From the NCBI GenBank assembly GCA_021463485.1, contig JAJTYJ010000003.1, forward strand, positions 23,292 to 87,291: 64,000 bases of DNA. The letters are read 5' to 3'. The notes beneath the pieces are model-generated. The model ran no database searches. It was not told the DNA's origin and worked only from the letters and a program-made list of their open reading frames with translations. Of this stretch, positions 3,382-22,090 are shown piece by piece. Made by a program: the position numbers and the translations under genes. This stretch comes from a bacterium. GTDB lineage: Bacteria > Patescibacteriota > UBA1384 > 2-12-FULL-50-11. How positions within the stretch are numbered: the first letter of the stretch is position 1; the number at the start of each line of letters is the position of its first letter.

Positions 3382-3666
3382 ATGGATCAGCAGGAAAAAG
3401 ACAGGATTTTAGATCGCCTTGTTAACTCAATCGAAAAAGCTTACCATCGCCCTGGTCGCTTGATGTGGCGAGGTTTTCTTATTGGGCTAGCTTCAGGTAT
3501 CGGCGGGACGCTCGGAATTGCGCTCGTTATAATAATGCTAACATTGCTCGTTGGGAAGCTCGGCGGAATACCGGTTATAGGCGAGGCTCTAAGGGATTTA
3601 CTTGATATTATTAATCGAGGGGCGGATACGCAGTCGTTTATCCAGTACGTACGACTACTCGTTTAA
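3382..3666 (+). CDS. Small membrane protein, hypothetical
   Basis: 94 aa ORF with central hydrophobic Gly-rich TM segment; stop overlaps start of next gene (TAATG). Confidence 0.5.
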   Translation: MDQQEKDRILDRLVNSIEKAYHRPGRLMWRGFLIGLASGIGGTLGIALVIIMLTLLVGKLGGIPVIGEALRDLLDIINRGADTQSFIQYVRLLV

Positions 3667-4283
3667 TGGCAGACTGGATTATTGATTTTATTTCTACTGG
3701 AGGTTATCCGGCGATCGCGGCGTTGATGCTGCTTGAGACAATCTTTCCGCCGATTCCGTCGGAACTAGTGGTACCATTTGCTGGATTTGCAGCCGCCCAA
3801 GGACGTCTCGATATCTGGCTGGTTGTGATCTCAGCCTTTGTTGGCTCTGTCTCAGGAGCGTTAGTGTTGTACTGGGTTGGAAAACTAATTAAAGACGAGA
3901 AACTAGAGCAATTCGTTCAAAAACACGGACGTTGGCTAACGTTAGATGTCGATGACTTACGAAAGTCTCGTCGATGGTTTGATCGTTATAGTCGAACTGC
4001 GGTGCTGTTTGGGAGACTCATTCCGGCAATTCGATCTCTTATTTCGATACCAGCTGGCATTACTAAAATGAGTATAGTGTCTTTCTTTATATTCTCGGCG
4101 ATCGGTACCGCTGTCTGGTCGTCGGTGCTGGCTTGGACCGGGTACCTACTTGGACAAGATTACGAACGAATTCGCCACATCATCGACCCAGTAACGTCGA
4201 TCATTGTCCTATTAGTTGTTGTAATCTATTTGTATCGACTAATTTTTCCTAGGCGTAAATCTGGATCAGCTGTAACAGATTAG
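3666..4283 (+). CDS. DedA / TVP38-TMEM64 (SNARE-associated) family membrane protein
   Basis: Multi-TM 205 aa protein with DedA signature region LLETIFPPIPSELVVPFAG and GRLIPAIRSLISIPAG. Confidence 0.75.
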   Translation: MADWIIDFISTGGYPAIAALMLLETIFPPIPSELVVPFAGFAAAQGRLDIWLVVISAFVGSVSGALVLYWVGKLIKDEKLEQFVQKHGRWLTLDVDDLRKSRRWFDRYSRTAVLFGRLIPAIRSLISIPAGITKMSIVSFFIFSAIGTAVWSSVLAWTGYLLGQDYERIRHIIDPVTSIIVLLVVVIYLYRLIFPRRKSGSAVTD

Positions 4284-4307
4284 GTATAATTTTATTTGCT
4301 AGATATT

Positions 4308-4382
4308 GGGGCATTAGTTCAGTGGCAGAACAACGGACTCTTAATCCGTGTGTCAGTGGTTCGAATCCACTATGCCCCACCA
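4308..4382 (+). tRNA. tRNA-Lys (anticodon CTT), CCA encoded
   Basis: Acceptor GGGGCAT/ATGCCCC, anticodon stem ACGGA/TCCGT loop CTCTTAA, T-arm GGTTCGAATCC, 3' ACCA. Confidence 0.85.
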
Positions 4383-4483
4383 TTAAATACTGTTAATAAC
4401 CGTTGATATACTACTAATGGCGGAGTATAATTTGCTCCACTCCTGGTTAGACCAGGCGTAGATTACATACAGGAGGTTAACAT

Positions 4484-5416
4484 GTGGTGGAAAAACTCCC
4501 TAGAATCGTAGTTGAGAAGCAAGGGTCGCATTCCGAGAACCCGCCGAAGGGTATCGAAATTCCGATCCGTGATGCGTTAGCGCGTCACGGCTTCACGGAA
4601 GGTAGTTGGTGTATGAAAGTTCGCATGGTGCACGCTCGTGGCGAAAGCCATAGCTATCGCGGTGCACACTTCAAAAGCCTTCGGAATTACGCTCGTAACG
4701 TCATCGACGTTGTGTCTCAGCCGGGCGCCGCTCATACGGCTTTCCCAGCAGACTTGATTGTCCCGGAGTGTTACGACGCAACTCACGTTCTCAACACGGT
4801 TCGACAGATCAACACCCTTGATCCGAACAAAGACGAGGACCTGGAGATGCTCAAGAAAGCATCGCAGTTCGACGTCGGCGCTTCTGCTAAGAGGCGCAGC
4901 AACGAACCTATCGCGTCAGTCCGTCGAAGCAACGAAGCGCGACAACAACGGATCGCCAAGTTCCTCGATAAGCCAAAAAACATCGACGCAGTCGGAGTAG
5001 TGATCCAGCGAGAATCTCTCAACGGTTCCGTTCCGATCAGCGTCCTGGATAAGGCGATCCGGGAAACGCTGCCATTTCAAATCTCAAGAGATGAGTTAGC
5101 GAGTACGCGAGCGATCTTCGTCTTAAACGAGGATCTTCTGCAGCCAGGTGATGGCGTGTACCACCTCTCCGAACGCGGCCAACTCTGGATCGAGAGCTTA
5201 CGTCAGCGTGAGCGCGACAACGAAGCGTTAGCGCAGCAAATGCAGCAGCAGCTTCTTTGGCGGCAGCTTGAGAAATGCGAACGCAGCCTTCGACAGTTCG
5301 ACGAACGGGTCGAGGCCGAGCGATCGTCGAGGCTTGAGACCATTCAACGACTCAAATCACAACTCGGGATTTCCGAGCAAGGAAGTGACGAACATGTATT
5401 GGTGTTGATGAGCTAA
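4484..5416 (+). CDS. Hypothetical protein (310 aa) with C-terminal coiled-coil/Gln-rich region; no recognisable domain
   Basis: GTG start 8 nt after AGGAGG; long ORF; sits immediately 3' of tRNA-Lys; appears GC-richer than neighbours by eye. Confidence 0.5.
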   Translation: MVEKLPRIVVEKQGSHSENPPKGIEIPIRDALARHGFTEGSWCMKVRMVHARGESHSYRGAHFKSLRNYARNVIDVVSQPGAAHTAFPADLIVPECYDATHVLNTVRQINTLDPNKDEDLEMLKKASQFDVGASAKRRSNEPIASVRRSNEARQQRIAKFLDKPKNIDAVGVVIQRESLNGSVPISVLDKAIRETLPFQISRDELASTRAIFVLNEDLLQPGDGVYHLSERGQLWIESLRQRERDNEALAQQMQQQLLWRQLEKCERSLRQFDERVEAERSSRLETIQRLKSQLGISEQGSDEHVLVLMS

Positions 5417-5422
5417 CACAAT

Positions 5423-5450
5423 GCCCCAGCTAGTCTGGGGCGTTTATTTT
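5423..5450 (+). terminator. Rho-independent terminator shared by convergent genes
   Basis: gcccca-gctagtc-tggggc hairpin followed by GTTTATTTT. Confidence 0.55.
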
Positions 5451-6110
5451 AATGTATTTACCTGGCTCGATATCGCCAAGCTCAAAGCGACCCAGTCGAG
5501 TGCGCGTTAGCTGTAACACTTCAATTCCGACAGCGGCACAAACACGGCGGACGATATGATTTCGGCCATCATGAATAGTAATAAGAAAATCAATTTTGTT
5601 TTGACGAATTTTACGCAACTCTAAATTATCGATCGTCACTGCACCGTCTTTCAGCTTTATCGGCTGGCGTAGCTTTTCCCAGGCTAGTTCGGGGTTTTTT
5701 GCCGATCCGACAACGTGATACTCTTTTTTATGCTCAAACTTCGGATGAGTAAGTTGATAACACAAATTACCGTCGTTTGTGAGCACTACCAACCCCATCG
5801 TTTCGGCGTCTAGTCGACCGCACGGGAAGACACGGGGGATGCTCGGCACGAGACTCGTAACGGTCGGTCGATTCTGAGGATCATTAGCGGTCGTTATCAC
5901 CCCTTTTGGTTTATTAAGTAGATATACCACCGGCTGATCACTGAGTGTGAGTAACTTATTGTTAAGTGTGACGTTGTCGTTTTCATTAATTTCGGTTGCA
6001 AGATTAGTGCAAACCGCTCCGTTTATTTTTACCTGCCCGCTAATAATAAGCTCATCTGCTTTTCGGCGAGAAAACTCGGTGGTACTGGCGATAAATTTAT
6101 TAATTCTCAT
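5430..6110 (-). CDS. 16S/23S rRNA pseudouridine synthase, RsuA/RluB family (S4 domain + pseudouridine synthase catalytic domain)
   Basis: N-terminal S4-like MRINKFIA...RRKADELIISGQVKING and catalytic motif PCGRLDAETMGLVVLTNDG (conserved Asp); likely start at Met13 of the track ORF. Confidence 0.8.
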   Translation of the reverse strand: MRINKFIASTTEFSRRKADELIISGQVKINGAVCTNLATEINENDNVTLNNKLLTLSDQPVVYLLNKPKGVITTANDPQNRPTVTSLVPSIPRVFPCGRLDAETMGLVVLTNDGNLCYQLTHPKFEHKKEYHVVGSAKNPELAWEKLRQPIKLKDGAVTIDNLELRKIRQNKIDFLITIHDGRNHIVRRVCAAVGIEVLQLTRTRLGRFELGDIEPGKYIKINAPD

Positions 6111-6195
6111 TACGCTCGAATTATTGTTATTGTTCTCCAAATACACTACAACTGAAACATATGATTTTACAAATAGCTAAGGTTGAGGAGGAAAA

Positions 6196-6828
6196 ATGAG
6201 CGGAGAAGGAAAGTTCTTTGGAATTGTGGCAATCGTTGCCATTGTAATAGTTGGCTTAGTCGTTATCTTTTCACGAGGCGGCGAAAAAGTAGTTGACGTC
6301 TCGGGCGGTGAAGCCTACAAAATTGGTCCAGACGACGCCAAAGTAAAGATTATCGCATTCGAAGATTTTCAATGTCCGGCTTGCAAAGCTGCTGAGCCAG
6401 CGCTTCGTCAAATGGTCAAGGATTATCCGACAACCGTTCAGTTTGTGTTTCGTCATTTCCCGCTTCCGATCCACCCCAACGCCGAGGAAGCAGCACTCGC
6501 CGCTGAGGCGGCTGGGGTTCAGGGTAAATTTTGGGAGATGAAAGAGTTGATCTACGATACTCAGGAAAACTGGTCAACGATGTCTAACCCCGACAACTAT
6601 TTCGGTGATTTAGCAAAAGAGCTCGGGCTAGATCTCGACAAATTTAAGGATAGTTACCGTTCAGATAGTTTAAAGCAAAAAATTAAAGCTGATATTAACG
6701 CCGCTGGAGCGGCGCAAGTTAACCAGACCCCAACATTTTTTGTTAATGGGAAGAGGGTAACCGGTGCGCAATCGCTAGATGACTGGAAGAAGTTAATCGA
6801 CGAAGCGTCGAGTACGCCTACAGAGTAA
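6196..6828 (+). CDS. Thiol:disulfide oxidoreductase, DsbA-like thioredoxin-fold protein with N-terminal TM anchor
   Basis: CxxC active site FQCPACKAAEP, RBS GAGGAGG upstream. Confidence 0.7.
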   Translation: MSGEGKFFGIVAIVAIVIVGLVVIFSRGGEKVVDVSGGEAYKIGPDDAKVKIIAFEDFQCPACKAAEPALRQMVKDYPTTVQFVFRHFPLPIHPNAEEAALAAEAAGVQGKFWEMKELIYDTQENWSTMSNPDNYFGDLAKELGLDLDKFKDSYRSDSLKQKIKADINAAGAAQVNQTPTFFVNGKRVTGAQSLDDWKKLIDEASSTPTE

Positions 6829-6834
6829 ATCGGT

Positions 6835-7608
6835 ATGCAGCTTGAGTCGAAGCAGCTTTTGCTGTCTAAAAATAACGAGCTCGAGCAGCTGCGATCGAAC
6901 TGGAAAAGTCCTCCTGGGATAGCGTTAATCTGGGTTGGTGACGATCAGCAAACTGCTGCGTTTGTTCGGGTTAAACAACGAAAAGCTAAAGAGCTTTCTT
7001 GTGTATTTATGCTTCATCGCTTCCCAACCATAACCGATCGTCAGCTAAGTGCTGTAATAAACAGTTTGAACGCACGTAAAGATATACACGGTATCGTACT
7101 ACAGCTACCACTGCCAAAGAATGTCGACACCGATCGGGCAATTATGGAAATCGCTTCCCAAAAAGACATCGATGGCTTGCGCAGCGATAGTCGACTAACG
7201 GCGCCAACCGCTCAAGGAATTGTAGAGTTGTTAAAGAATAACAATGTAGATTTGCGGAACTTGAAGACCGTAATATTAGGTGACGGTCGCTTGGTTGGGC
7301 ATCCACTTGCAGAGATTTTCAAGGAAAAGAATTGGGACTTTACTCAATACTCAACTGATGCCAAGCGACACAGTGCTGAAATCCGGTCGCACGACGTGCT
7401 AATTTCTGCAACGGGACAGAATGGGTTGGTAAGTGCGGAGATGGTTCATAAAGATATGGTGGTAGTTGATGGCTCGGGAGTTGACGTTGATATTGAAGTA
7501 ATTGAACCACTTGTCGCTTCAATTACGCCGAAAAAGGGCGCGATCGGCCCCTTAACGGTTTGTAATTTGTTCGAAAATTTACTTACTTCTTCGTCGCACG
7601 AGGCTTGA
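6835..7608 (+). CDS. folD: Bifunctional methylenetetrahydrofolate dehydrogenase / methenyl-THF cyclohydrolase FolD
   Basis: Motifs IALIWVGDDQQTAAFVRVKQRKAKE, IHGIVLQLPLP, VILGDGRLVGHPLA matching FolD. Confidence 0.8.
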   Translation: MQLESKQLLLSKNNELEQLRSNWKSPPGIALIWVGDDQQTAAFVRVKQRKAKELSCVFMLHRFPTITDRQLSAVINSLNARKDIHGIVLQLPLPKNVDTDRAIMEIASQKDIDGLRSDSRLTAPTAQGIVELLKNNNVDLRNLKTVILGDGRLVGHPLAEIFKEKNWDFTQYSTDAKRHSAEIRSHDVLISATGQNGLVSAEMVHKDMVVVDGSGVDVDIEVIEPLVASITPKKGAIGPLTVCNLFENLLTSSSHEA

Positions 7609-8047
7609 TGACGTTTTCAACTAAACAGGAGGAGTAAGTAACAGTTGCTGTCGAAATCCCAGTTGTCATACATGTATCAACAGCAACTTTCTCAGCAGCG
7701 GTAATCGTACCAAGATCAAAGTTAATTTTGGTAGGATACCTTAAACCCGGAAAACCTTGCTGCCCTATCCAACTACCAATCGTATCGGTATCGAGAATTA
7801 TTGTCGTCGGGATACTTATTGATTTGGCCTTACTGTATAGGTCTGTCTCTTTCCACCCGATACTAACGATACCATTTAGATCGTTTTCGGTACTAACGCC
7901 GGTACTGGTATTAGGTTGTACGGCTGCTGGTAGCATATATGCCTCTAAATTTAAAAGCTGTGCCAGCGAACCTCGAAAGCCAAAACCTACTAATACGCCG
8001 ATCAACAATCCGACTAAACCGATTACAATTACTCTTGGTGTGTTCAT
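7583..8047 (-). CDS. Small secreted/membrane-anchored hypothetical protein
   Basis: N-terminal TM/signal segment, strong RBS AAGGAGGG before ATG; the opposite-strand ORF 7728-8087 has no RBS and poor composition. Confidence 0.5.
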   Translation of the reverse strand: MNTPRVIVIGLVGLLIGVLVGFGFRGSLAQLLNLEAYMLPAAVQPNTSTGVSTENDLNGIVSIGWKETDLYSKAKSISIPTTIILDTDTIGSWIGQQGFPGLRYPTKINFDLGTITAAEKVAVDTCMTTGISTATVTYSSCLVENVIKPRATKK

Positions 8048-8075
8048 ATCCCTCCTTATGTATTATTACTTCTAT

Positions 8076-9818
8076 CTAACTGAGTAACGAGAACTCTGTC
8101 AAATACGATACAAGCTTCTTAATATCAACAGTTTTTTGTTCTTGAGTTGAGCGGATTCTTAGGGTAACTTTCTTTTCGGCAAGCTCTTTTTCGCCAATTA
8201 CCGCAATTACCGGCACTTTTTCCAGCTCGGCTGTCCGGATTTTTTTACCTAGTGTTTCTTCAGTAATATCCAACTCTGCTCGGAATTGCTTCGTTATTTC
8301 GTCAAATACCTCTTTGCTAAATGCGGCTGCTTTCTCGGAGACACTCAAGATTTTTATCTGGGTTGGTGCAACCCAAAACGGAAAGTCGCCAGCGTAATGT
8401 TCGATAAGCACGGAGATAAAACGCTCCAACGAACCCATGACAGCAACATGAATCATAACTGCGCGCTCTTTTTCTCCCTGTTCGTTAATGCAGTACAGAT
8501 CAAATCGCTCCGGCATATTGAAATCGAGTTGTATTGTCGCGACTTGCCATTGGCGACCGATCGAGTCTTTCGCCATAAAATCAACCTTCGGACCGTAGAA
8601 CGCTGCTTCGCCCTCTTGTTCTATTACCGCTACTTTTCGTGATTTGGCTATCGAGCGCAGCGTCTGCTCGGCTTGCTGCCACTGCTCCGGTTTACCAAGG
8701 TATTTCTCCGGTTCTTTCGGGTCGCTTAAGCTCAACCTAACCTCTAGCTTAAAGCCGAATTTTTTGTAAAACGTGTCGACGATATCCCAAGTATCTTTAA
8801 CTTCTTTTTCGATCTGGCTTGGGCGGCAGAAAATGTGCGCGTCGTCTTGAGTAAAGCCACGAACCCTAGAAAGCCCCGCTAACTCGCCTGACTGTTCGTC
8901 GCGATAAACCATTGTCGTATTCGAGTAACGCTGCGGCATATCGCGGTAGCTTCGTTGTTCTGAAGCAAAGATTTGAGTATGGTGCGGGCAGTTCATCGGC
9001 TTCATCGCAAATTCGTGACCCTCACGAGTTTTAACTAAGAACAGCTCGTCTTTAAATTTCTCCCAATGGCCGGAAGTAATGTATAAATCTTTTTTAGTAA
9101 TGTGAGGAATCTCAACTTTTTGATACCCCTTTTCTTTACGTAACTCCCAAACAGCGTCGTCGAGAACATTACGCAAGACGGTGCCCTTCGGCTTCCAAAG
9201 CGGCAACCCGCTGCCGACTAACTCGGAAAAGGTGAATAGTCCGAGTTTCGGACCGAGTACCTTATGATCGCGGCGCTTGGCCTCGGATAGCTGCTCAAGA
9301 TATTCTTTTAGTTGTTTTTCACTTTCGAACGCAGTGCCGTAAATACGAGTTAGCATCGGTTGGTGCTCGTCGCCGCGCCAGTATGCACCGGCCGTAGAAA
9401 GGAGTTTAAGCGCTTTAATTTCGTTAGTAGATTTTACGTGCGGTCCTTTACATAGATCCCAAAAACTATCTATGCCATAGAAACTCAACTCTGTGTCCTC
9501 AAGATTTTCGGCAAGCTCGAGCTTATAAGGCTGTTGGTCTTTTCGATACTGTTTTTCGGCTTCAGATTTCTTTAGTGTTTTACGAACTACAGGAAAATTT
9601 TTGTTAATAATTTTCCACATGCTTTTTTCCAACACTGAGAGATCCTTTTCAGTAAGAGTTTTAGAAAGCTGGAAGTCGTAGTAAAACCCGTTTTCGATCG
9701 GCGGACCGATCGCCAGTTTTGCGTCTGGATCCCACTCTAATACAGCCATCGCCAAAACGTGGGCAGCGGTGTGGCGAATTTTGTATAGATTTGACTCTTC
9801 GTATGAGGCGTTATTCAT
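8076..9818 (-). CDS. thrS: Threonyl-tRNA synthetase (catalytic + anticodon-binding domains; no N-terminal TGS extension)
   Basis: Class II aaRS motifs, HTAAHVLAMAV editing-site-like region, FESE..., 580 aa. Confidence 0.9.
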   Translation of the reverse strand: MNNASYEESNLYKIRHTAAHVLAMAVLEWDPDAKLAIGPPIENGFYYDFQLSKTLTEKDLSVLEKSMWKIINKNFPVVRKTLKKSEAEKQYRKDQQPYKLELAENLEDTELSFYGIDSFWDLCKGPHVKSTNEIKALKLLSTAGAYWRGDEHQPMLTRIYGTAFESEKQLKEYLEQLSEAKRRDHKVLGPKLGLFTFSELVGSGLPLWKPKGTVLRNVLDDAVWELRKEKGYQKVEIPHITKKDLYITSGHWEKFKDELFLVKTREGHEFAMKPMNCPHHTQIFASEQRSYRDMPQRYSNTTMVYRDEQSGELAGLSRVRGFTQDDAHIFCRPSQIEKEVKDTWDIVDTFYKKFGFKLEVRLSLSDPKEPEKYLGKPEQWQQAEQTLRSIAKSRKVAVIEQEGEAAFYGPKVDFMAKDSIGRQWQVATIQLDFNMPERFDLYCINEQGEKERAVMIHVAVMGSLERFISVLIEHYAGDFPFWVAPTQIKILSVSEKAAAFSKEVFDEITKQFRAELDITEETLGKKIRTAELEKVPVIAVIGEKELAEKKVTLRIRSTQEQKTVDIKKLVSYLTEFSLLS

Positions 9819-9892: not shown

Positions 9893-12800
9893 ATGAGGAG
9901 GGTGGCAACGGCTATTTCTAAGTCCTGGGCTCGAATTATCCGTGCGCTGGCGTACTATCCGCTCGGTTTTTACCTAGGCTTGTTACTAATTGTCGCAGCC
10001 GCGTTTCTATACTGGGCGCAAACAGATCTGGGTTGGAAATTTGATTGGGTACAGTTACAGCGGTGGATTTCAAACCACGCCATGGCGATACTAGCCTTGT
10101 TTACAGGCTTGCTCGGTTTAGTGCTAATCGGAAGTGCGATCGCGTATAAACAGGTAATTGACCTATCGAAACAGGAGTACGTACTATGGCTCCATCAACG
10201 AGCGACGAAAGTACTTTTCCCGGTTTTTTCTCCGCTGCACGACTGGATCCGTTTGCGCAGCCGAATATATCATTGGTGGCACGCTCAATCGTTCTCAAAC
10301 GTTACGCACTATTTCTTGCTTATTATCGCAATCGGTGGATTAGCAAAAACCACTGTTAACTACATTAGTTCAGCTCAAGCGTCGCACGGCTGTTCGGATG
10401 CGGTAACGATTACTGTTAATACAACCTGGTCAACGAACCAATGCCACGGTGATGTCGTGATTCGAAACGGCGCAACCTTAACAATTAACGGCGGCATAAC
10501 AGCCGATTTGAGTAGCCTAAGCGTCGGTAGCGACTCGCCGGCAGAGAACGGATTTATTGTCGCTAAAGGGGACACATTAAACAATCTGGGGGTCGTGTTA
10601 AATGTTGATGGAGCTGTTTACGTCCGAGCTAGTAGCTCAATTAATGCCGACGCTCAGGGTTACCTTGGTGGTCGGTCCGGTGACGTAAACGGTAAGGGCC
10701 CTGGCGGTGCAACGACAGACGGGACAAGTACCGCAGGGGGTGGTGGATACGGAGGCGCAGGCAGCAATGGTTCTGGTTCAAATGCCGGAGGAAGCTCCTA
10801 CGGCACTCTAGCTGCCCCAGTTGATCTAGGATCTGGTGGTGGATTTGCTACAGGCTGTTGTAGTAATAACGGTGGCGATGGTGGTGGTGCTATTAAGATT
10901 AATGCACCCTCGAGCACGGTCACGTTAAACGGAACAATATCTGCAAATGGTGGAGCAGGTGGCAGCGGATGTTGCGCTTATGCTGGTGGTGGATCAGGCG
11001 GAAGTATCTGGGTTGTTGCTAACACTCTGGCCGGGTCCGGGGAGGTTAGAGCCCACGGCGGTGCTGGTGGCTCTGGTGGAGCTGGTGAAAGTAATAACGG
11101 CGGAGCAGGGGCGGGTGGACGTGTTCAACTGACATTCTCCTCTGACATATCAACGATCACTAAGTTGGCATATGACGGGGGTAACAACGGTGCTAACCGT
11201 CGCGGTGCTGCAGGAACTGTTTCAACTAGCAGTGAGTTGATTATTGCAAACAACGCTTCGCCAACAATTCTGCCAACCGTGGCTACTCCGCTCTCTGGTT
11301 CATTGAGTTACGCAAACACAACTATAAAAGATAATGCTTACGTTACATTGGCGTCGGGTGCAAATCTTTCTGGCGGTACAACCCTAATCCAAAATAATAC
11401 TAAAACAACGTTACTTGCGAGTAATACAGTTTGGTCTGGGGGCTCTCTAACGGTTCAAACCGGTGCGAATACAATTAATATACCTAAAGACGTGTCTACA
11501 GAACCAAATTTTTCCTCGATTAATATTGGTACAGGAACGCTACAACACGACTCTCATACAAGTACCCACACCTATTCGTTAATTTTAAGCACTTCGGGTT
11601 CTGTCACCATCACGGGTACGATCAATGTAGACGATAAGGGATATGCCGGAGGGACTTCAGGCTCCGCGGATGGTAAGGGGCCGGGAGGTGGTTTAGACGG
11701 AGCTTCTAATGATGCTCCTGGAGCAGGTCACGGTGGAACCGGCGGTAACGGGGCAACAGTTAACGGCGGTGCAAGCTACGGTAATTTATCTTCACCGACA
11801 GATCTTGGCTCTGGTGGGGGTGGGACTTCCTCAAGCTCGTTTAATAATGGCGGTAATGGCGGTGGAGCGGTAAAGATTACTGCGTCATCCGGTACCGTGA
11901 CGGTCAACGGAACGATTACTGCTAACGGTTCTACTGGGTTCTCCGCATGTTGTAACTACGCTGGCGGCGGCTCTGGTGGAAGTATCTGGATTATCGCTAA
12001 CACACTTGCTGGCTCTGGCACGGTCAGAGCCAACGGCGGTGCTGGTGGTTCTGGTGGAGCTGGTGAGAGCAATAACGGCGGCGCTGGTGCAGGTGGAAGA
12101 ATACAGCTCACATATAGTAGTGATACCTCGAGTATCACTAAACTGGCCTTTGATGGAGGCAATAATGGGGCAAATCGTCGCGGTGCCGCGGGAACTGTTT
12201 CAACTAGTAGTGGCTTAACCGTCGCTAACAGCACATTGGTAACAGTAATGCCCGTTGTTTCGACACCAATAAGTGGGACGCATAACTACCCAGCTACAAG
12301 TATTAAGGATTATGTCTACGTGACACTTGCAGCTGGTGCTAATCTTTCCGGTGGAACAACCACAATCGAGAATAACACCCGCACAACCCTACTTGGGGAT
12401 GATACTGTTTGGACTGGTGGGGCGCTCACAGTTCAAACCGGTACTAATACGATAAATGTTAAGCCAACTATTAGCACTAAACCTCTTTTTTCAAGTATCA
12501 ACTTTAGTAGCGGGAACGTATACCACGATGATCATACAACCGCAGATAACTACCATATTATTCTTAGTGCTACCGGCAATATTACGGTTGGAACTACCAT
12601 TAATCTAACTGGTTTAGGATTCTCTGGGGGAGCAGCAAACAGCACAGGTAACGGTACGGGCCCAGGGGTTGGAGGTGTTACTATACATGCCGGTGGTGCC
12701 CACGGTGGGAATGGTGGAACAGGTGCAAGTAGCGGCGGCGCTGGTGGTACTGCCTATGGATCAACGCTTACTCCTATAACACTTGGCTCGGGGGGCGGTG

Positions 12801-15601
12801 GCGCTGAAGGAATTAATGGTGGTGATGGCGGTGGGGGAAGGATCGCGAGACACTATACCAGTTCCACATACTCGGGTACTGTCTCCGTAGTCAAGGGTTC
12901 TGGTTCGTGTGCTGCAGGTCAAAATGGTACTAATCAGACAGTCGGTGCAGTGACGGACCTAATAGTGACTGGGATCTCTACCCCGCGAACGGCTGGCATC
13001 ACGAGCTCGGTTGTAGTCGAGGCGCGTGACGCGTCTAATAACCGCAATTACGCGTATACAAAAGCTATCACATTTACTTCAACCGACTCCCAGGCGACGT
13101 TGCCGGGAAATTACACGTTTACGATTGCCGATGCGGGACTTGCAACAATCCCTGGAGTCATTCTTAAAACCGCCGGCACACAAACGGTGACAGCTGACCA
13201 AACCGATGATGGGACTGTCGACGGAACACACGCCAACATAACCGTAAATGCAGGTAGCGTTACGAATTTAGTCGTCAGCGGTGTAACTGATCCTGTGACC
13301 GCTGGCACATCTACAAGCCCAACTGTTACTGCTAAAGACGCATATACAAATACCGTTAGCGGGTATACCGGCACCGTCACGTTTACATCAAGTGACTCGC
13401 AGGCGACGTTGCCAGTCAATTACACATTTGTTGGCGGCGATGCCGGTGTGAAAACGTTTACCAACGGAGTCGTCTTAAAAACAACTGGCGTGCATTCAAT
13501 TACTGCCAGCGACGGTACGATCAGTGGAACAATCCAGAACATCAATGTAACTGCCGGACAACCGACGAAGCTAAAAATTAGCAATATTACTTCACCGATC
13601 GCAGCTAATACCCCTGCTTCCCCGACAGTAGCGGTTCAAGACCAGTACAACAACACAGCAACTGGTTACACCGGAACTATTACCTTTAGCTCAAGCGACG
13701 CCGCTGCAACGCTACCGAGTAATTACGCGTTTTCAGTGAGCGATCAGGGTGTTCGAACATTTACGAACGGTGTAACCTTTGCGACTGGTGGGACACATTC
13801 ACTAATTGCAACGGACGTTAGCTCGCCAACGATCAATGGTACGTTATCAAGCATCGTCGTAACGGCTGCACCAAGCCCCGGTAGTACAAGCCAACCGTCG
13901 TTAACGATTGTGCTAATCCAGCCGTCGGAAGGTACCTTCTTTGGAACGATCACACAACAAGTAAACGGATTACCATTAGAAATTACCGTAACTGGGACCG
14001 TGAAAGGCAACCAAATAAACGGCACCGTCTCGGGTACTTACAACGAGCAGCCAGTAACTGGAACGATCACCGGTACAGTTAAAGGACAAAAAATTGAGTC
14101 GGCGATACTAACGCTCTTCAACGCGAACGACCCAGGATTTAACCTTACGGTCGTAGTTGGTGGGGTAATTAGTCCGCCAGATAGTCCTAAACAAGAACCC
14201 GACTGTAAGCTTCGTGGTACGCTCGAGCTGACAATCGACGGTAAAAAGTTTAGTGGCGAGGTCCAGTTAACAATTAGCCCAGATGGTAGCGTCACGGGGA
14301 GAGCAAAAGGATTTCTAGACAACGATCGGGTATTTGGTACGTTCAGCGCCAGCTCGGTTGAGGGTAGGCTGATCGGTGGAACAGTTACGTTAACAAGTAA
14401 TAATAACAACTCACCGATCACCGGCGAGATAATCGGTAGCGTTCGAGATGGTGAAATACAGTTAACCAATGCCGAACACTGCAATATATCTACTGATGTT
14501 TTAATTGATACCGATGAAGACGGCGACGCTGATGGCGAGGGTACGGGCAACGTCGAGATCGACGAACCGGTTTCATCGAGTGATGTTATAAACGGTTCGA
14601 TCATCGGAACTGTCGAGGGACAAACAGCTAACGAAGATGTAATCGTTAACGGATTATTTGAAGCGCTAGTCTCAGATGTTGTGATTAAACCGACAGAGCT
14701 AAAATTTGAGACAAACGAACAGAACGACTTAATCTCTGGCGCGCTGGCAGTGGTGAGCGGTTTGTCTGTTCTACCAATCCTGCCTGCTGTCCAGAGTATC
14801 CTTCTGACATCTTCAACTCGGGGTTTCACTTTCATTCATTGGTTCTTCTTTGGCTATACGCCTCGCAAACGACGCAAGTTCTGGGGAGTTATTAAAGATA
14901 AAACAACCGGCGTTCCAGTTGCAGGAGTACTTGTTAAGCTAGTAGACGTTCATAATGATCGGGTAATAAACCAGTACCGAACTGATAAGACGGGTCGTTA
15001 CGGTTTCTTAGTGGAAACGGTGGGGGACTACCGAATAACAATTATTGATCCGTTGTATGCTGCCTTTAGTAGTAAAGAATTCTCAGTCGATAGCTTGAAA
15101 CAACCGATAGTAACCGGGGATATTCAGCTAACTCCAGTTCACCAGAGACAGCTGCAACTTCTAAATAAGACGTTTGTCTGGGTTGCGGCGATAAAAGTTC
15201 TTAATATCATCCACTGGTCGTTGCTGATTGGAGGAACAATCCTTTCGGTTATGCTTGTTGCTGATCATCCGACGACGTTAAGAACCTTAATTGCGTCGCT
15301 GTATTCGGTACTGTGGTTGTCGAAATTACTCGGATATCGTCGAGAACGGCATTACGGACAAGTAACGGATACAGACGGCGCACCACTTGCTCGTGCAGTC
15401 GTACAGCTAACAAACCAATCCGGTGAAACAACAGCACATATTCACTCGACAGTTACCGACGCTAAAGGTCGATTTGTCCTATTGGTAAAGCCCGGAGTTT
15501 ATACTGTTATTGTTGCCAAAGACGGGTATAAGACTCGACAAGGCGCTGTTATTGCTGACGAGGCGAATATGACTATTCGTCTCGAACGAGTAGATTCTTA
15601 A
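9893..15601 (+). CDS. Giant (1902 aa) membrane-anchored surface protein: N-terminal 2 TM helices, ~2.3 tandem Gly/Asn/Ser-rich beta-helix-like modules with paired Cys (GCC), 4 Ig-like (Big/invasin-type) repeats, Thr-rich region, C-terminal TM helices with two carboxypeptidase-regulatory-like beta-sandwich domains
   Basis: Direct reading of translation: repeated GGAGGSGGAGESNNGGAGAGGR modules, repeated VT.L.VSG.T.P..AG..TS..V.A.DAY.N....YTGT.TF.SSD..ATLP.NY.F blocks x4, C-terminal YRTDKTGRYGF / TDAKGRFVLLVKPGVYTV CarbopepD_reg-like motifs. Confidence 0.7.
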   Translation: MRRVATAISKSWARIIRALAYYPLGFYLGLLLIVAAAFLYWAQTDLGWKFDWVQLQRWISNHAMAILALFTGLLGLVLIGSAIAYKQVIDLSKQEYVLWLHQRATKVLFPVFSPLHDWIRLRSRIYHWWHAQSFSNVTHYFLLIIAIGGLAKTTVNYISSAQASHGCSDAVTITVNTTWSTNQCHGDVVIRNGATLTINGGITADLSSLSVGSDSPAENGFIVAKGDTLNNLGVVLNVDGAVYVRASSSINADAQGYLGGRSGDVNGKGPGGATTDGTSTAGGGGYGGAGSNGSGSNAGGSSYGTLAAPVDLGSGGGFATGCCSNNGGDGGGAIKINAPSSTVTLNGTISANGGAGGSGCCAYAGGGSGGSIWVVANTLAGSGEVRAHGGAGGSGGAGESNNGGAGAGGRVQLTFSSDISTITKLAYDGGNNGANRRGAAGTVSTSSELIIANNASPTILPTVATPLSGSLSYANTTIKDNAYVTLASGANLSGGTTLIQNNTKTTLLASNTVWSGGSLTVQTGANTINIPKDVSTEPNFSSINIGTGTLQHDSHTSTHTYSLILSTSGSVTITGTINVDDKGYAGGTSGSADGKGPGGGLDGASNDAPGAGHGGTGGNGATVNGGASYGNLSSPTDLGSGGGGTSSSSFNNGGNGGGAVKITASSGTVTVNGTITANGSTGFSACCNYAGGGSGGSIWIIANTLAGSGTVRANGGAGGSGGAGESNNGGAGAGGRIQLTYSSDTSSITKLAFDGGNNGANRRGAAGTVSTSSGLTVANSTLVTVMPVVSTPISGTHNYPATSIKDYVYVTLAAGANLSGGTTTIENNTRTTLLGDDTVWTGGALTVQTGTNTINVKPTISTKPLFSSINFSSGNVYHDDHTTADNYHIILSATGNITVGTTINLTGLGFSGGAANSTGNGTGPGVGGVTIHAGGAHGGNGGTGASSGGAGGTAYGSTLTPITLGSGGGGAEGINGGDGGGGRIARHYTSSTYSGTVSVVKGSGSCAAGQNGTNQTVGAVTDLIVTGISTPRTAGITSSVVVEARDASNNRNYAYTKAITFTSTDSQATLPGNYTFTIADAGLATIPGVILKTAGTQTVTADQTDDGTVDGTHANITVNAGSVTNLVVSGVTDPVTAGTSTSPTVTAKDAYTNTVSGYTGTVTFTSSDSQATLPVNYTFVGGDAGVKTFTNGVVLKTTGVHSITASDGTISGTIQNINVTAGQPTKLKISNITSPIAANTPASPTVAVQDQYNNTATGYTGTITFSSSDAAATLPSNYAFSVSDQGVRTFTNGVTFATGGTHSLIATDVSSPTINGTLSSIVVTAAPSPGSTSQPSLTIVLIQPSEGTFFGTITQQVNGLPLEITVTGTVKGNQINGTVSGTYNEQPVTGTITGTVKGQKIESAILTLFNANDPGFNLTVVVGGVISPPDSPKQEPDCKLRGTLELTIDGKKFSGEVQLTISPDGSVTGRAKGFLDNDRVFGTFSASSVEGRLIGGTVTLTSNNNNSPITGEIIGSVRDGEIQLTNAEHCNISTDVLIDTDEDGDADGEGTGNVEIDEPVSSSDVINGSIIGTVEGQTANEDVIVNGLFEALVSDVVIKPTELKFETNEQNDLISGALAVVSGLSVLPILPAVQSILLTSSTRGFTFIHWFFFGYTPRKRRKFWGVIKDKTTGVPVAGVLVKLVDVHNDRVINQYRTDKTGRYGFLVETVGDYRITIIDPLYAAFSSKEFSVDSLKQPIVTGDIQLTPVHQRQLQLLNKTFVWVAAIKVLNIIHWSLLIGGTILSVMLVADHPTTLRTLIASLYSVLWLSKLLGYRRERHYGQVTDTDGAPLARAVVQLTNQSGETTAHIHSTVTDAKGRFVLLVKPGVYTVIVAKDGYKTRQGAVIADEANMTIRLERVDS
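10640..12860 (+). repeat. Intragenic tandem duplication (period ~975 bp, ~2.3 copies) inside the giant protein gene, conserved at nucleotide level
   Basis: e.g. 10990-11140 (ggtggatcaggcggaagtatctgggttgttgctaacactctggccgggtccggg...) nearly identical to 11962-12110 (ggcggcggctctggtggaagtatctggattatcgctaacacacttgctggctctggc...). Confidence 0.75.
12940..13870 (+). repeat. Four tandem ~300-bp Ig-like domain repeats within giant protein gene
   Basis: Repeated protein blocks ...TFTS[ST]DSQATLP.NYTF... seen four times. Confidence 0.65.
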
Positions 15602-16746
15602 GCTAGTATCGAGACGATTTTTTCGGCGAGTTTTTCTAACTCTTGATTAGTAATACCTTTGGTTGTGATCGCACAGGTGCCGATCCTGATCCCACTTGGG
15701 TCTTGCGGCGGAGCGTCGTCGTACGGGATTGAGTTCTTGTTAACGATAATACCGTTATCTTCTAGACGTTGCTGAGCGACTGCGCCCGTTATTCCTTGTG
15801 GCCTTAAATCAATAAGAAAGAGGTGATTATCTGTGCCACCGGTCACAATATTCATACCTTTTTTTGTAAGTAATTCAGCCAGCATCTGGGCGTTAGCAAC
15901 CACCTGCTGACAATAGGCTTTATAGGATGGTAACAGCGCTTCTTCTAACGCAACACCGATCGCGGCGATGGCGTTCATATGCGGTCCGCCTTGTAATCCA
16001 GGGAAGACCGCTTTGTCAATTTTTTTCGCGTGCTCAGGTTTACAAAAGAGCATCGCGCCGCGCGGACCGCGAAGTATTTTATGCGTCGTCGTCATTACAA
16101 AATCTGCATAACCAAACGGCGACTGATGTAATTCGGTCGCTATTAGGCCAGAAATATGGGAGATATCGGCTAAGTGGAGCGCACCGACAGTATGAGCAAT
16201 TTCGGAGATGCGTTTAAAGTCGATCTCTCGCGAGTAGGCGGAAGCGCCGGAAATAATCAGTTTTGGCCTTACTTCATTAGCTTCACTCTCGAGCTGATCG
16301 TAGTCGAGCAGCCCAGTCTTTTCGTTAACAAAATAAGCGTAACGGTCGTAGAGCTTGCCCGAAATCGTAACTGGATGACCGTGTGTTAAATGACCGCCGT
16401 GCGAGAGCTCCAGTCCCATAATCGGATCATGTGGCTGGAGAAATCCAAAGTAAACCGCCAAATTCGCTATCGAACCCGAGTAAGGCTGAACATTGACGTG
16501 GTAATCAGTATTAAAAACTTCTTGGGCTAATTCTTTAACGCGGTTTTCAATCTTATCGACAATCTCAACACCGCCGTAATATCGCCAGCCAGGCTGCCCT
16601 TCGGCGTATTTATTAGTCAAATCTGAGCCAAGCACTGCCTTTACTTCATCGGAAACAAAGTTTTCAGAGGCGATCAAATTGATAACCGAATTTTGGCGTC
16701 GTGACTCTTCGGCGGTAAGCTCTGAGATAGTTGGTTTGTGACTCAT
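15598..16746 (-). CDS. glyA: Serine hydroxymethyltransferase
   Basis: N-terminal ELTAEESRRQNSVINLIASENFVS, PLP-lysine region TTTHKILRGPRGAMLFC (TTHKTLRGPRG motif). Confidence 0.9.
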   Translation of the reverse strand: MSHKPTISELTAEESRRQNSVINLIASENFVSDEVKAVLGSDLTNKYAEGQPGWRYYGGVEIVDKIENRVKELAQEVFNTDYHVNVQPYSGSIANLAVYFGFLQPHDPIMGLELSHGGHLTHGHPVTISGKLYDRYAYFVNEKTGLLDYDQLESEANEVRPKLIISGASAYSREIDFKRISEIAHTVGALHLADISHISGLIATELHQSPFGYADFVMTTTHKILRGPRGAMLFCKPEHAKKIDKAVFPGLQGGPHMNAIAAIGVALEEALLPSYKAYCQQVVANAQMLAELLTKKGMNIVTGGTDNHLFLIDLRPQGITGAVAQQRLEDNGIIVNKNSIPYDDAPPQDPSGIRIGTCAITTKGITNQELEKLAEKIVSILA

Positions 16747-16796: not shown

Positions 16797-17231
16797 ATGA
16801 AGGCAGTGCATCGCAATAAAAAAGCCACCTTCGATTACGAAATACTCGACCGGCTTGAGGCAGGAATAGTTTTACTCGGCCCAGAAATTAAGGCAATTCG
16901 CGAAGGAAGAGCAACGATCGCTGGAAGCTATGTTAAACCGCTGTTGACTAACGGCATGGTTGAGATGTGGTGGGTCGGGAGCAACTTTCACGTTACTAGC
17001 GGAGATCCAACAAGAACAAAAAAACTATTACTACATAAAACAGAGATTAAAAAACTATTAGGTAAATTAAGCGCTGGCGAGTATACGATCGTACCGATCG
17101 ACCTTCATCTCGTTCGTGGTAAGGCAAAACTTACGATCGGGCTAGCAAGCAGACGAAAAAAGTACGACAAACGACAGAAGATTAAAGAGCGGGATATCGA
17201 GAAGAACCTTCGAGAGCGTTTTCGGGATTAG
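16797..17231 (+). CDS. smpB: SsrA-binding protein SmpB
   Basis: NKKATFDYEILDRLEAGIVLLGPEIKAIREGRATIAGSYV ... LLLHKTEIKKL conserved SmpB sequence. Confidence 0.9.
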   Translation: MKAVHRNKKATFDYEILDRLEAGIVLLGPEIKAIREGRATIAGSYVKPLLTNGMVEMWWVGSNFHVTSGDPTRTKKLLLHKTEIKKLLGKLSAGEYTIVPIDLHLVRGKAKLTIGLASRRKKYDKRQKIKERDIEKNLRERFRD

Positions 17232-18082
17232 TTATCTTGCACCGGTTCAGAGCTCGATGAGTTTGTCTCGCCCTGTTGGTTTGATCGTAAATTATTATCG
17301 GCTTTCAACTCGTCAGCAATCTTAGCTAGCTCGGTTTTAAAGTTAGATAATGATGTTCGAGCAGCTTTTAGCTGAGCCTTGGCGCTGGTAAGTAGATCTT
17401 TGTTGGTAGTAGAACTTGGGTTAGAAAGAACCTTCTTATATGTGTCGATTGCTGCCATTAGTGAGCTCTCGGCGCTGGCTAATTCCTTCTCTAAGACGGT
17501 GGTGTCAACTTGCTTCTCTTTCAATTTAAGAATTAATGGATCAAATCGATCATTAATTCGGTCTAAAATTTTACCAGCCCGACATAAACCGCTAATCGCG
17601 GGGTTGATATACATAAAGACCCTAGTTTTTTCGATCGCTGACTTTAGTTCTGTCCTTGCTGATTCGGCGCTTTCAGCCGCTTTAATTTTTGCGAGCGCTG
17701 CGTTAAGGTCGTTTCTTAGCGTTGTGATTGCGGCAGTGATTGGCGTTTTAACGTCAACAGAAGTAACTTTCGAGCAGTTGGCGCCTGAGAGTCGTCGCTC
17801 CTGCTCTGTGAGCACTTTTAATCTAACGTTAATTTGTTTTTCGGCGTAGGTAACCGTTCTCGTTTTTAGCGCTTCGGCTCGCTCAATACTACGCGCTTCT
17901 TTATACGCGCTACGCTCGAGCTTCATTGCTTCCAGATCAGTTTTAAATTTAGCTCTCACAGAGTCGCTTGTGGTCGTTGTCTGGTTTGTGCCTTGAGATT
18001 CTTGCGCAAAAACCAGCGGCGACGCCAGTAACATAACGATGAGCGCGATCACGGCGATAATAATTAATATTCGTTTCATCAC
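17228..18082 (-). CDS. Secreted alpha-helical/coiled-coil hypothetical protein with signal peptide
   Basis: N-terminal MMKRILIIIAVIALIVMLLASPLVFAQ signal-like segment; Ala/Lys/Glu-rich helical repeats. Confidence 0.5.
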   Translation of the reverse strand: MMKRILIIIAVIALIVMLLASPLVFAQESQGTNQTTTTSDSVRAKFKTDLEAMKLERSAYKEARSIERAEALKTRTVTYAEKQINVRLKVLTEQERRLSGANCSKVTSVDVKTPITAAITTLRNDLNAALAKIKAAESAESARTELKSAIEKTRVFMYINPAISGLCRAGKILDRINDRFDPLILKLKEKQVDTTVLEKELASAESSLMAAIDTYKKVLSNPSSTTNKDLLTSAKAQLKAARTSLSNFKTELAKIADELKADNNLRSNQQGETNSSSSEPVQDN

Positions 18083-18381
18083 AAATCGCTCGTATCGTCC
18101 TCGGTTGAAGCCAGACTTTCGTCGATCTCAGCCAACTCTTGGTCTAGTTCGTTACCCAGCGCTGTTAGGTCTGTTTCAGACTGACTAATATCTGTATTAA
18201 TATCGCTTTCGGTTGTCGATTGCTCGGTTGAGACACCGTCGTTAGAGCTGTCGGTACTACCGTCTCGATAATACATAAAGGCAACAGCAGCAAAAATCGC
18301 ACCAACTACTAACAAACCCAGAAGCCAAAAAACAAGTTTACTCATTGGCTTTTCTTCCTGAAGTACCGGCTCAGTGTCCAT
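18079..18381 (-). CDS. Small single-TM protein with highly acidic Ser/Thr/Asp/Glu-rich C-terminal tail
   Basis: TM LVFWLLGLLVVGAIFAAVAFMYY followed by acidic low-complexity tail; 4-bp overlap (ATGA) with downstream gene. Confidence 0.45.
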   Translation of the reverse strand: MDTEPVLQEEKPMSKLVFWLLGLLVVGAIFAAVAFMYYRDGSTDSSNDGVSTEQSTTESDINTDISQSETDLTALGNELDQELAEIDESLASTEDDTSDL

Positions 18382-18418: not shown

Positions 18419-18778
18419 TTACTGGATTTTCTCGAGTTTCCAGCTAATTGTGTCGGTAGATTTCGTCTGGTAGTCGGCTGCGCCAACCTGAGCCAGCTCG
18501 CCGTTGACGTAAAATGCCCAAAATTCATCACTACCGGCTTTCCGGCCGTTGATCGACAGAACCATCTGGCCAAAGTCGAATTTCTGTGTCTCAATTTCGT
18601 AACTAGCGTCAAGTAGCTCTAACGCATTTTTGCCGTCAACGCCCTTGTAGCTAATTTCTGTGGTCTGTTCTTGACCAACCGGAGTTGCGGTATCGCTTGA
18701 TCTTGGAATCACCAAGTACAAACCAAATGCTAATATAATCGCCATCGCGGCGTAGAGTAGTGTTCGTTGTTGTTTCAT
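18419..18778 (-). CDS. DUF4430-like (transcobalamin-like fold) small secreted protein
   Basis: N-terminal TM/signal, C-terminal FWAFYVNGELAQVGAADY resembling DUF4430 W.YYVNG motif; RBS GGAG 4 nt before ATG. Confidence 0.5.
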   Translation of the reverse strand: MKQQRTLLYAAMAIILAFGLYLVIPRSSDTATPVGQEQTTEISYKGVDGKNALELLDASYEIETQKFDFGQMVLSINGRKAGSDEFWAFYVNGELAQVGAADYQTKSTDTISWKLEKIQ

Positions 18779-18840: not shown

Positions 18841-19003
18841 ACTTTGAGTGAAGTTTTGTTAGGATCGGGCTTTAACCGTTGCGGCACAGCAGCCAAATTT
18901 CATGGCTTTCACTAACAAGACTTTTATAGTCAAAGAACTTCTCTAGGTATACTGTTCGACCTCCTACCTGTCAAGCAGGCATTTTTACGGGTAAAATACT
19001 CAT

Positions 19004-21043: not shown

Positions 21044-22090
21044 CTAAATTGGGACGTAGATCTTAATTTTATAGTTTGGCTTAATGCTCGCGTACCACTC
21101 CTCATAAGTTTGGTAGTTATTACCGGTCTTCTCCGTAACTTGGATAATGTGATAACCAAATTTGCTCTGAACAGGACCCAATATTTTATTCACTTCGCCG
21201 TTAAACGCCGCTTCCTCGAAGCCAGGTGCGATCTGGGCGCTGAGCTCGCCCTTTGTCCAGTAACCTAAGTCGCCGCCGGCTTCTTTTGTTTGTGCGTCTT
21301 GGCTAAATTCGCGAGCAGCAGTTTCGAAGACTTTTCCGCCTTCAATTTGTTTCTTGGCCTCATTTGCCGCACTTTCTGTGGCCGTCAGAATATGTCTGAC
21401 TTTTACACGAGTTAGAACACTAGCCTTAACCTTTTCTTTCAAGATTCGTTCGGCGAGCACTTGCTTAAACTCGCCCGGCTTCATGCCGTAGAGTTCGTGT
21501 ATTCGTTTCTCGAAATTTTCCGTTGTTTTTTTCTGCTGCTCGTACGATTTGTCGAGCTCTTCTTGTGAAACGCTAACACCTCGATTTTGAGCCTCGAGAA
21601 AAACAATCTTATCTTCGACTAGCCCGGCGATAATCTTCTCTCTAAGCTGCGCGTCGGTTGGGATAGCGCTAGCGACGTCTTTTGAGGCCTGAGATTGGAA
21701 GGTGATTAGAAAACGAAGTCTTTGTAAAAAATGGTGGCTCCAGATATACGATTGATTCACTCGTACGGCCGGCATCGGGTAGAGCAAGCTAATCGTCTCG
21801 CTAAACGCACTCTCAGATTTCTTTTGGTAGATATTGTAGTAACCTGCGGCGCCGAAGATTAAGTAAATCGACAAGATAAATATTGCGATATCAATAAAAA
21901 TTGTTGATGGGTTATGTACGTGGCGCTGAACTAGCGCCTCGAGAAACGGCAGACGCAATCTCAACCATACGAATACTTTTTCGTATAGTACGTAAATGGC
22001 ACGACCGACTCTTTTTAGAATCAATAAAGCGCTCTGAAGAAACTCAGATATTTTCTTTAGAATGGGGTTAATTGCGGAAAGTTTGCCCAT
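21044..22090 (-). CDS. Membrane-anchored parvulin-type peptidyl-prolyl cis-trans isomerase (PrsA/SurA-like)
   Basis: Parvulin domain VRHILTATESAANEAKKQIEGG...EAGGDLGYWTKGELSAQIAPGFEEAAFN...GYHIIQV; N-terminal TM. Confidence 0.75.
   Translation of the reverse strand: MGKLSAINPILKKISEFLQSALLILKRVGRAIYVLYEKVFVWLRLRLPFLEALVQRHVHNPSTIFIDIAIFILSIYLIFGAAGYYNIYQKKSESAFSETISLLYPMPAVRVNQSYIWSHHFLQRLRFLITFQSQASKDVASAIPTDAQLREKIIAGLVEDKIVFLEAQNRGVSVSQEELDKSYEQQKKTTENFEKRIHELYGMKPGEFKQVLAERILKEKVKASVLTRVKVRHILTATESAANEAKKQIEGGKVFETAAREFSQDAQTKEAGGDLGYWTKGELSAQIAPGFEEAAFNGEVNKILGPVQSKFGYHIIQVTEKTGNNYQTYEEWYASIKPNYKIKIYVPI

Follow-up and report, generated by a model that had tools for sequence, protein, structure and literature searches.

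Here we describe a giant gene in a 64,000-nucleotide stretch of bacterial DNA (positions 23,292 to 87,291 of contig JAJTYJ010000003.1, assembly GCA_021463485.1; hereafter the window). The gene is one unbroken open reading frame (ORF) at 9893-15601 on the forward strand, the longest of the window, which runs from an ATG start through 1902 codons to a stop codon. We read its product, with a probability of about 0.6, as a cytoplasmic-membrane-anchored, adhesin-like envelope fibre of Patescibacteria (the Candidate Phyla Radiation, CPR) with a variable tip and a C-terminal anchor. From the membrane outwards, the fibre would consist of a beta-rich proximal region, a stalk of three immunoglobulin (Ig)-like repeats and a distal tip of 2.5 right-handed beta-helix modules, which is strain-variable and is presumed to bind the ligand. 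A C-terminal module would hold the fibre by a stop-transfer helix with a basic cluster, a transthyretin-like sandwich, a transmembrane (TM) hairpin and a second sandwich. We take the long passenger between leader and anchor to be extracytoplasmic because it is poor in Lys and Arg, rich in Ser, Thr, Asn and Gly and supplied with conserved Cys pairs, and because a DsbA-like gene lies nearby (with VKOR in relatives). It would then be displayed at the surface and, to judge from its architecture and the lifestyle of these organisms, may bind host cells.

The evidence for an anchor comes from the C-terminal 300 residues. Pfam finds only the two C-terminal sandwiches in the protein, as two stretches that match CarboxypepD_reg (PF13620). 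The whole protein scores 70.9 bits with this model (E 1.2e-19) and the C-terminal segment alone 88.1 bits, where the cut-off is 32.3; related transthyretin-clan models match as well, including SdrD_B (E 4.7e-10) and SpaA (E 2.2e-8). The original prediction, made from the sequence without database searches, had placed CarboxypepD_reg sandwiches interleaved with hydrophobic helices at this end, and that arrangement is confirmed. When 1.84 billion representatives were searched exhaustively with a profile of this module, many generic CarboxypepD_reg repeat proteins were found, and the whole module matched once, always C-terminally, in about 50 distinct proteins of about 400-3300 residues that bear unrelated passengers (FN3-like, Kelch-like and Big-like). 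About 29 of these begin with the leader module of the window protein and about 15 with an ordinary signal peptide ending in an AxA site, the rest being fragments. Judged from this distribution, the C-terminal module is a portable anchor. On a practical level, a word-index homology search missed the known family: the alignment of the C-terminal module retrieved one irrelevant protein and that of the N-terminal module two fragments.

The topology of the anchor can be approached through charge and composition. Its stop-transfer segment contains a hydrophobic helix (aa ~1613-1637), an aromatic stretch (FTFIHWFFFGY) and a basic cluster (PRKRRKF). Across ~55 homologues the aromatic stretch between helix and cluster has 9-13 residues, which makes it too short for a membrane span, and the cluster before sandwich 1 carries 3-7 Lys or Arg and 0-1 Asp or Glu, a net charge of about +3.5. 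In the homologues the hairpin loop, of about 5 residues, is close to neutral (charge about 0), and a further basic cluster, of about +1.3 net, precedes sandwich 2. The two sandwiches contain ~12% Lys plus Arg, ~25% Ser, Thr, Asn and Gly and no Cys, as they do in 54 homologues, whereas the passenger (aa 165-1610) contains 3.8% and 50%, respectively, with Cys present. The cytoplasmic proteins of the window have 9-22% Lys plus Arg and 18-25% Ser, Thr, Asn and Gly, with Cys mostly present (0-1.6%). In composition the sandwiches thus match the window's cytoplasmic proteins and differ from the passenger. On these two independent lines both sandwiches are most likely cytoplasmic, and not exposed on the surface.

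The N-terminal leader consists of a basic N-terminal tail, two strong hydropathy peaks at aa 24-42 (TM1) and 65-83 (TM2), which agree with the two TM helices originally predicted, a basic Trp/His-rich loop (aa ~95-139) and a third hydrophobic segment of 12 residues (aa 140-151) that is absent from the original prediction and lies below the TM threshold of the hydropathy scan. This last segment, or h-region, is followed by a polar stretch, the sequence A161-Q-A163|S164 and a conserved Cys pair (C167/C184). In alignment A6 the loop residues Y96, W99, L100, Q102, T105, F109, P110, H116, D117, R120, Y126, W128, W129, H130 and H139 are near-invariant, and small residues occupy positions -3 and -1 in ~10 of 13 aligned members. 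The leader matches no Pfam, NCBIfam or PDB profile, and it fills the place held by ordinary signal peptides in other proteins with the C-terminal module. It looks like the h- and c-region of a signal peptide set behind a very long membrane-embedded n-region, and the two-TM hairpin, the basic and presumably cytoplasmic loop and the h-region with its AxA site would together export the passenger. We give cleavage by signal peptidase I at A163|S164 an even chance. If the site is cut, the mature protein would begin at the disulfide-capped beta-helix and the variable beta-helix would be a free distal tip on the Ig stalk; if it is not, the passenger would be a loop tethered at both ends. A topology with both ends in the membrane, as first proposed, is doubtful because the third hydrophobic segment resembles the h-region of a signal peptide and is followed by a conserved AxA site. 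Tat (twin-arginine translocation), PEP-CTERM and LPXTG signals were ruled out as explanations of the basic clusters by the position of the motifs.

If both sandwiches do lie inside the cell, they could act like a rivet that keeps the fibre from being pulled out, mediate oligomerisation or offer a cytoplasmic partner a place to dock. A bolder proposal, which we hold only tentatively, is that the leader and the C-terminal module form an undescribed transmembrane coupling device of Patescibacteria, working outside-in like an integrin: the beta-helix tip would recognise the host, and the cytoplasmic domains would bear load or relay attachment. The leader would contribute a two-TM hairpin and a cytoplasmic Trp/His motif, and the C-terminal module three TM helices and two cytoplasmic domains, which might dock onto a retained leader fragment. 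Were this true, the C-terminal module by itself would represent a new and general means of anchoring surface proteins in the CPR, distinct from the sortase/LPXTG system.

It is rather unlikely, in our view, that the passenger is instead a giant extracellular loop anchored at both ends with the sandwiches on the outer face, for example as wall- or glycan-binding feet, but several observations that would suit such a loop count against an anchored fibre with cytoplasmic sandwiches. Domains of the CarboxypepD_reg type, like SdrD_B and SpaA-type sandwiches, are usually extracytoplasmic. Some members of the short subfamily have 2-3 hydrophobic peaks before sandwich 1, which would allow a hairpin there, and the full-length AlphaFold2 model of the short homologue P0017, which is poor in its membrane parts (pLDDT, the predicted local distance difference test score, 50-60; predicted template modelling score, pTM, 0.36), shows several helices at this place. 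The N-terminal module is conserved far beyond the need of a disposable leader, and such conservation is odd for something merely cut off and discarded; some short-subfamily members also lack a clean AxA site and are Pro-rich around the expected position, so that cleavage may not be universal. The weakness of our topology is that it is built on the positive-inside rule and amino-acid composition, and the adhesive function has its own difficulty, in that a housekeeping neighbourhood and single-copy conservation (see below) would also suit a protein with a structural task in the envelope instead of one that adheres to a host. The outer-face topology, however, would in ~55 homologues turn outwards both the clusters with their 3-7 Lys/Arg and that at RRERH, would put outside two Cys-free, cytoplasm-like domains that are unlike every domain of the passenger, and would need a second span for which the aromatic segment is too short, while a 12-residue h-region with an AxA site is more in keeping with a signal peptide than with a permanent TM helix.

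The tip of the proposed fibre is built from a Gly/Ser/Asn-rich module of ~320 residues, whose two complete copies (aa 176-505 and 511-831 in self-comparison) are 56% identical over 328 residues (E 1.7e-66). A third copy spans positions 2-193 of the 333-position module profile and has undergone an in-frame loss of ~70 residues, or three helix rungs, relative to P0002, P0003 and P0012. Two copies and a truncated third therefore stand from the original description of such modules, whereas the GCC doublets that it called conserved (aa 322/323, 360/361 and 686/687) are frequent in the family and not invariant. Neither the module nor the N-terminal 175 residues, the Ig repeats or aa 1326-1610 has a match in Pfam, NCBIfam, PHROG or PDB sequences, apart from a weak one to FdeC (E 0.018) and sub-threshold noise. 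Other phyla have the same module in giant proteins annotated as "beta strand repeat-containing". Structure prediction, which had been suggested as a check, gave a confident all-beta AlphaFold2 model for aa 160-510 with 36 aligned modules (mean pLDDT 92.4, pTM 0.91), according to which the Gly-rich module is a right-handed beta-helix; within it the Gly-richest stretch (model residues 93-173) is confidently placed and has no DSSP strands.

This is also the part of the protein that varies between strains. Compared with P0002 and P0003, residues 1-250 and 1000-1902 are mostly 94-100% identical (two 50-residue windows are lower), while residues 250-1000 are about 36-80% and mostly 44-68% identical; residues 301-450 resemble P0007 more (74-78%), which is elsewhere the more distant protein. 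At the DNA level, the threonyl-tRNA synthetase gene (ThrRS), the intergenic spacer and the serine hydroxymethyltransferase gene (SHMT) are 93-96% identical to a syntenic locus (L001), and the beta-helix region is 64% identical. Such a mosaic would fit an exposed interaction surface whose alleles are replaced or which has diversified strongly. Hypermutation by a diversity-generating retroelement was set aside, as 40-50% divergence with indels over 750 residues is unlike its A-specific pattern; no reverse-transcriptase domain was found among the ~30 ORFs, a part of those in the window, that were scanned with Pfam.

Alternatively, the beta-helix modules would be enzymes, such as polysaccharide lyases, hydrolases or tailspike-like depolymerases that attack the wall or capsule of a host, the whole then being a tethered lytic factor. 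We consider this improbable: no lyase or hydrolase family in Pfam, NCBIfam or PHROG is matched, the invariant columns of the module are nearly all Gly (plus one Ser and one Arg) with no conserved acidic or catalytic set evident, and ~50% allelic identity across the module would be unusual for an active-site scaffold. A prophage tail fibre was likewise dropped as a candidate, since the PHROGs gave no phage family, and a Pfam match to phage_tail_N reflects merely the transthyretin-like fold.

Below the tip, self-BLAST delimits three Ig-like repeats (aa 1018-1119, 1121-1220 and 1222-1324) that are 38-53% identical to one another. Four Big/invasin-like repeats had been expected; the nearest relatives do have four, the window allele three, and no Pfam Big or invasin model is significant on the window protein. 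The sole match to Big_1, which at 21.7 bits (E 2.2e-4) falls short of the required 34.9, lies in the C-terminal sandwich 2. The Ig assignment draws on a weak phmmer match to FdeC (4e9l, E 0.018) and on a Foldseek search with the model of a homologue, in which invasin (1cwv) and InvD (5ldy) are among the matches. The Thr/Gly-rich stretch of the original prediction was recovered after aa 1326, and includes a Cys pair (C1438/C1530); this region (aa 1326-1610) has no PDB profile match and only sub-threshold Pfam matches, to TbpB_B_D and HpuA.

The gene belongs to a family with a fixed position in the genome. Hidden Markov models (HMMs) of the N-terminal ~200 and C-terminal ~300 residues match every complete family member, and the window protein has both terminal modules in one chain and lies between ThrRS (8076-9818, reverse strand, divergent, upstream) and SHMT (15598-16746, reverse strand, convergent, downstream). 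Full-length relatives found by homology search are 1139-2753 residues long; members have 1-5 beta-helix modules, and the Ig repeats number 3-7 in the close family and up to 19 in the more distant P0134. The loci of P0009 and P0014, together with those from a scan of metagenomes with the N-terminal module, share the order (VKOR-)DsbA-FolD-ThrRS / gene / (SHMT)-SmpB-...-DUF4430-YchF. Since this neighbourhood persists although their ThrRS are just 48-65% identical to that of the window, the gene is a positional orthologue and not an accessory gene borne on an island, and it is single-copy and in this position in every related locus inspected except one (L006). There, on a 1.04-Mb contig, the gene for P0010 (9968-16519) sits outside the ThrRS/SHMT locus and encodes the N-terminal leader, three beta-helix modules, four Ig repeats and a divergent C-terminus with a single sandwich. 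Among species-representative genomes, a scan traced the syntenic locus L001, with its 93-96% identical flanks, to "Patescibacteria group bacterium BroJett034", in agreement with the Patescibacteria-type host that had been suggested, and a distant protein with the C-terminal module was found in an uncultured Saccharibacteria genome.

The giant gene and SHMT overlap by 4 nucleotides at their stop codons (window 15598-15601), which leaves no room for an intergenic terminator, and the same 4-nucleotide overlap is kept in distant loci (L003 13704-13707 and L004 9633-9636). A scan for promoters and terminators found fewer promoter-like sites than in shuffled sequences and about as many terminator-like ones.

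A conserved single-copy core locus and predicted cytoplasmic domains conserved across the family would also suit an adhesin that transmits force for motility, with its sandwiches coupled to an internal motor as in the gliding adhesins AgmC, Gli349 and SprB. NCBIfam does link the window protein weakly to the N-terminal domain of AgmC (NF047640; E 7e-7), but the scores, 28.5 bits overall and 9.4 bits for a single module, are far below the cut-off of 275 bits and arise from Gly-rich sequence. Furthermore, no motor genes adjoin the gene in any locus inspected, and the C-terminal module also ends many small, unrelated proteins. We regard this explanation as very unlikely.

The gene itself is real and intact, and the description of it as the single largest gene of the window holds. 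An interrupted ORF or a collapse of repeats had been named as the finding that would overturn the prediction, and neither was seen: the frame is open across 5.7 kb, the internal repeats are just 71-74% identical in DNA, making collapse unlikely, Tandem Repeats Finder reports no tandem array, a protein identical to that of the window (P0001) is present in NCBI/Logan assemblies on 3 contigs from 2 sources, and all domain boundaries agree with those of orthologues. A separate look-up of contigs that encode the exact window protein had no entry. That the ORF is an assembly artefact or pseudogene, such as a false in-frame ORF made by collapsed repeats, is accordingly scarcely credible, even though the window allele lacks ~70 residues of module 3 and one Ig repeat relative to its nearest relatives and a frameshift in the Gly-rich region breaks the L001 orthologue. 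The latter is split into ORFs of 773 (2795-5116) and 1308 residues (4989-8915), perhaps through an error of sequencing, perhaps as a genuine pseudogene. An antisense ORF of 265 residues inside the giant gene (14038-14835, reverse strand) is unsupported and was treated as a by-product of coding-strand composition.

How far the protein departs from known adhesins depends on the level at which it is compared. The original prediction that it is no standard adhesin family holds in so far as no curated family covers the whole protein or either of its membrane modules, and fails for the overall plan, which is already known. By fold, the closest systems are the beta-helix adhesins of the TpsA and autotransporter kinds. 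The TpsA adhesins (EtpA, HMW1, FHA and HxuA) share the right-handed beta-helix shaft, but the window protein has no match to the two-partner secretion (TPS) domain of Pfam (Haemagg_act) and no NPN[LG] motif, about half of each module is a Gly-rich elaboration that does not superpose, and the protein is tethered by TM segments instead. No TpsB (Omp85-type) gene lies nearby, the neighbours being ThrRS, FolD, DsbA, SHMT and SmpB, and the organism is a monoderm-type member of the Patescibacteria, without an outer membrane. Classical (type Va) autotransporters end in a 12-stranded barrel; the window protein has no Autotransporter Pfam match and ends in TM helices and sandwiches.

With invasin, intimin and FdeC the protein shares a tandem Ig-like stalk, a resemblance at the level of fold only, but it lacks their N-terminal beta-barrel and C-type-lectin tip, no Big_1 match above threshold falls on the repeats, and the polarity is reversed, with a C-terminal anchor. 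The sortase-anchored microbial surface components recognizing adhesive matrix molecules (MSCRAMMs; Cna-B/SdrD-B) likewise have a hydrophobic segment and basic cluster near the C-terminus and prealbumin-like sandwiches; in the window protein, however, there is no LPXTG (and no LP.[TSA][GAN] anywhere), 240 residues follow the basic cluster, and the sandwiches come after the stop-transfer signal, not in the stalk. Of the motifs of chlamydial Pmp proteins, three GGA[ILV] and three FxxN are present, unpaired, and there is no Chlam_PMP Pfam match.

By overall plan, the closest counterparts are the adhesin-like proteins (ALPs) of gut methanogens, which combine a membrane-anchoring domain, one or more right-handed beta-helix domains and tandem Big/Ig repeats in a cell without an outer membrane (PMC11532034). 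A membrane anchor with a beta-helix and Ig repeats is thus a known kind of adhesin architecture, and the ALPs share with the window protein both this plan and variable copy numbers. They differ in that their anchors are described there as simple terminal TM helices, against a three-segment N-terminal leader and a three-TM C-terminal module with two sandwiches; they are also archaeal and the window family bacterial, and the two are likened by architecture, not sequence. What sets the window protein apart is the probable cytoplasmic location of the sandwiches, the elaborate leader, and a fixed housekeeping locus with allelic turnover.

The coordinates of these features are collected in Table 1.

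Table 1. Features of the giant protein and of a neighbouring gene, with positions in the window.
Feature	Residues	Position	Strand	Basis
N-terminal leader module	1-163	9893-10381	+	Hydropathy, alignment A6
Cap with Cys pair (C167, C184) and Gly-rich beta-helix module 1; CC at 322/323 and 360/361	164-505	10382-11407	+	
Gly-rich beta-helix module 2; CC at 686/687	511-831	11423-12385	+	Self-BLAST, module HMM
Truncated beta-helix module 3	837-~1010	12401-12922	+	Module profile, relatives compared
Three tandem Ig-like (invasin/Big-like) repeats of ~102 residues	1018-1324	12944-13864	+	Self-BLAST, repeat HMM
Membrane-proximal Thr/Gly-rich beta region with Cys pair C1438/C1530 and acidic linker	1326-1610	13868-14722	+	Alignment A5
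Stop-transfer segment	1611-1663	14723-14881	+	Hydropathy, basic cluster
Transthyretin-like CarboxypepD_reg sandwich 1, predicted cytoplasmic	1664-1748	14882-15136	+	Pfam, charge, composition
TM hairpin with short loop DHPTT, then RRERH	1761-1815	15173-15337	+	Hydropathy
CarboxypepD_reg sandwich 2, predicted cytoplasmic	1823-1900	15359-15592	+	Pfam (best stretch aa 1822-1892), composition
DsbA-like thioredoxin gene		6196-6828	+	Pfam Thioredoxin_4 and DSBA

The window is otherwise an ordinary piece of bacterial chromosome, with RNase P RNA, seven tRNAs and housekeeping genes. The product of its DsbA-like gene may assist the oxidative folding of the passenger at its Cys pairs, a putative functional link suggested by context. 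In relatives a VKOR and DsbA pair lies upstream of the giant gene (L003 1570-2636, L004 2222-3251), and the window leaves no room for VKOR between 6146 and 6196. A PrsA/SurA-like peptidyl-prolyl isomerase (21044-22090, reverse strand) and an LCP (LytR_cpsA_psr) wall-polymer ligase (22634-24001, reverse strand), both of monoderm-type envelope biogenesis, are encoded near the fibre gene. On the same strand an AdoCbl-II riboswitch (18852-18930, 46.8 bits) immediately precedes three ORFs, one of DUF4430 and two unassigned (18419-18778, 18079-18381 and 17228-18082); these genes also flank giant-gene orthologues, and with the riboswitch they probably form a B12-regulated uptake operon. Elsewhere, an ORF of 451 residues (36687-38042, forward strand) joins peptide deformylase to the N- and C-domains of Met-tRNA formyltransferase, an apparent Def-Fmt fusion, and two full-length UvrA paralogues lie within the 64 kb (27006-29849 and 61052-63889, both reverse strand), along with UvrC (58538-60169, reverse strand).

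Host recognition and attachment in Patescibacteria are largely obscure. Type IV pili and some adhesins that have not been named are the main factors implicated so far (PMC10633639, PMC11623550), and both are described as essential for the epibiosis of Saccharibacteria. PMC10633639 makes no mention of a CarboxypepD_reg/transthyretin domain or of a transmembrane anchor, and our literature searches surfaced no description of this protein family. The window protein is a well-conserved envelope protein that varies the beta-helix/Ig adhesin theme: its tip is hypervariable, and its two membrane modules are uncharacterised. Its beta-helix part is swapped or diversified between near-identical genomes, as expected of a determinant of host specificity or of one exposed to phages or immunity. 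The C-terminal module would give a recognisable anchor signature for annotating the surface proteome of these organisms and, if its sandwiches are truly cytoplasmic, would raise the structural question of what a surface fibre needs inside the cell.

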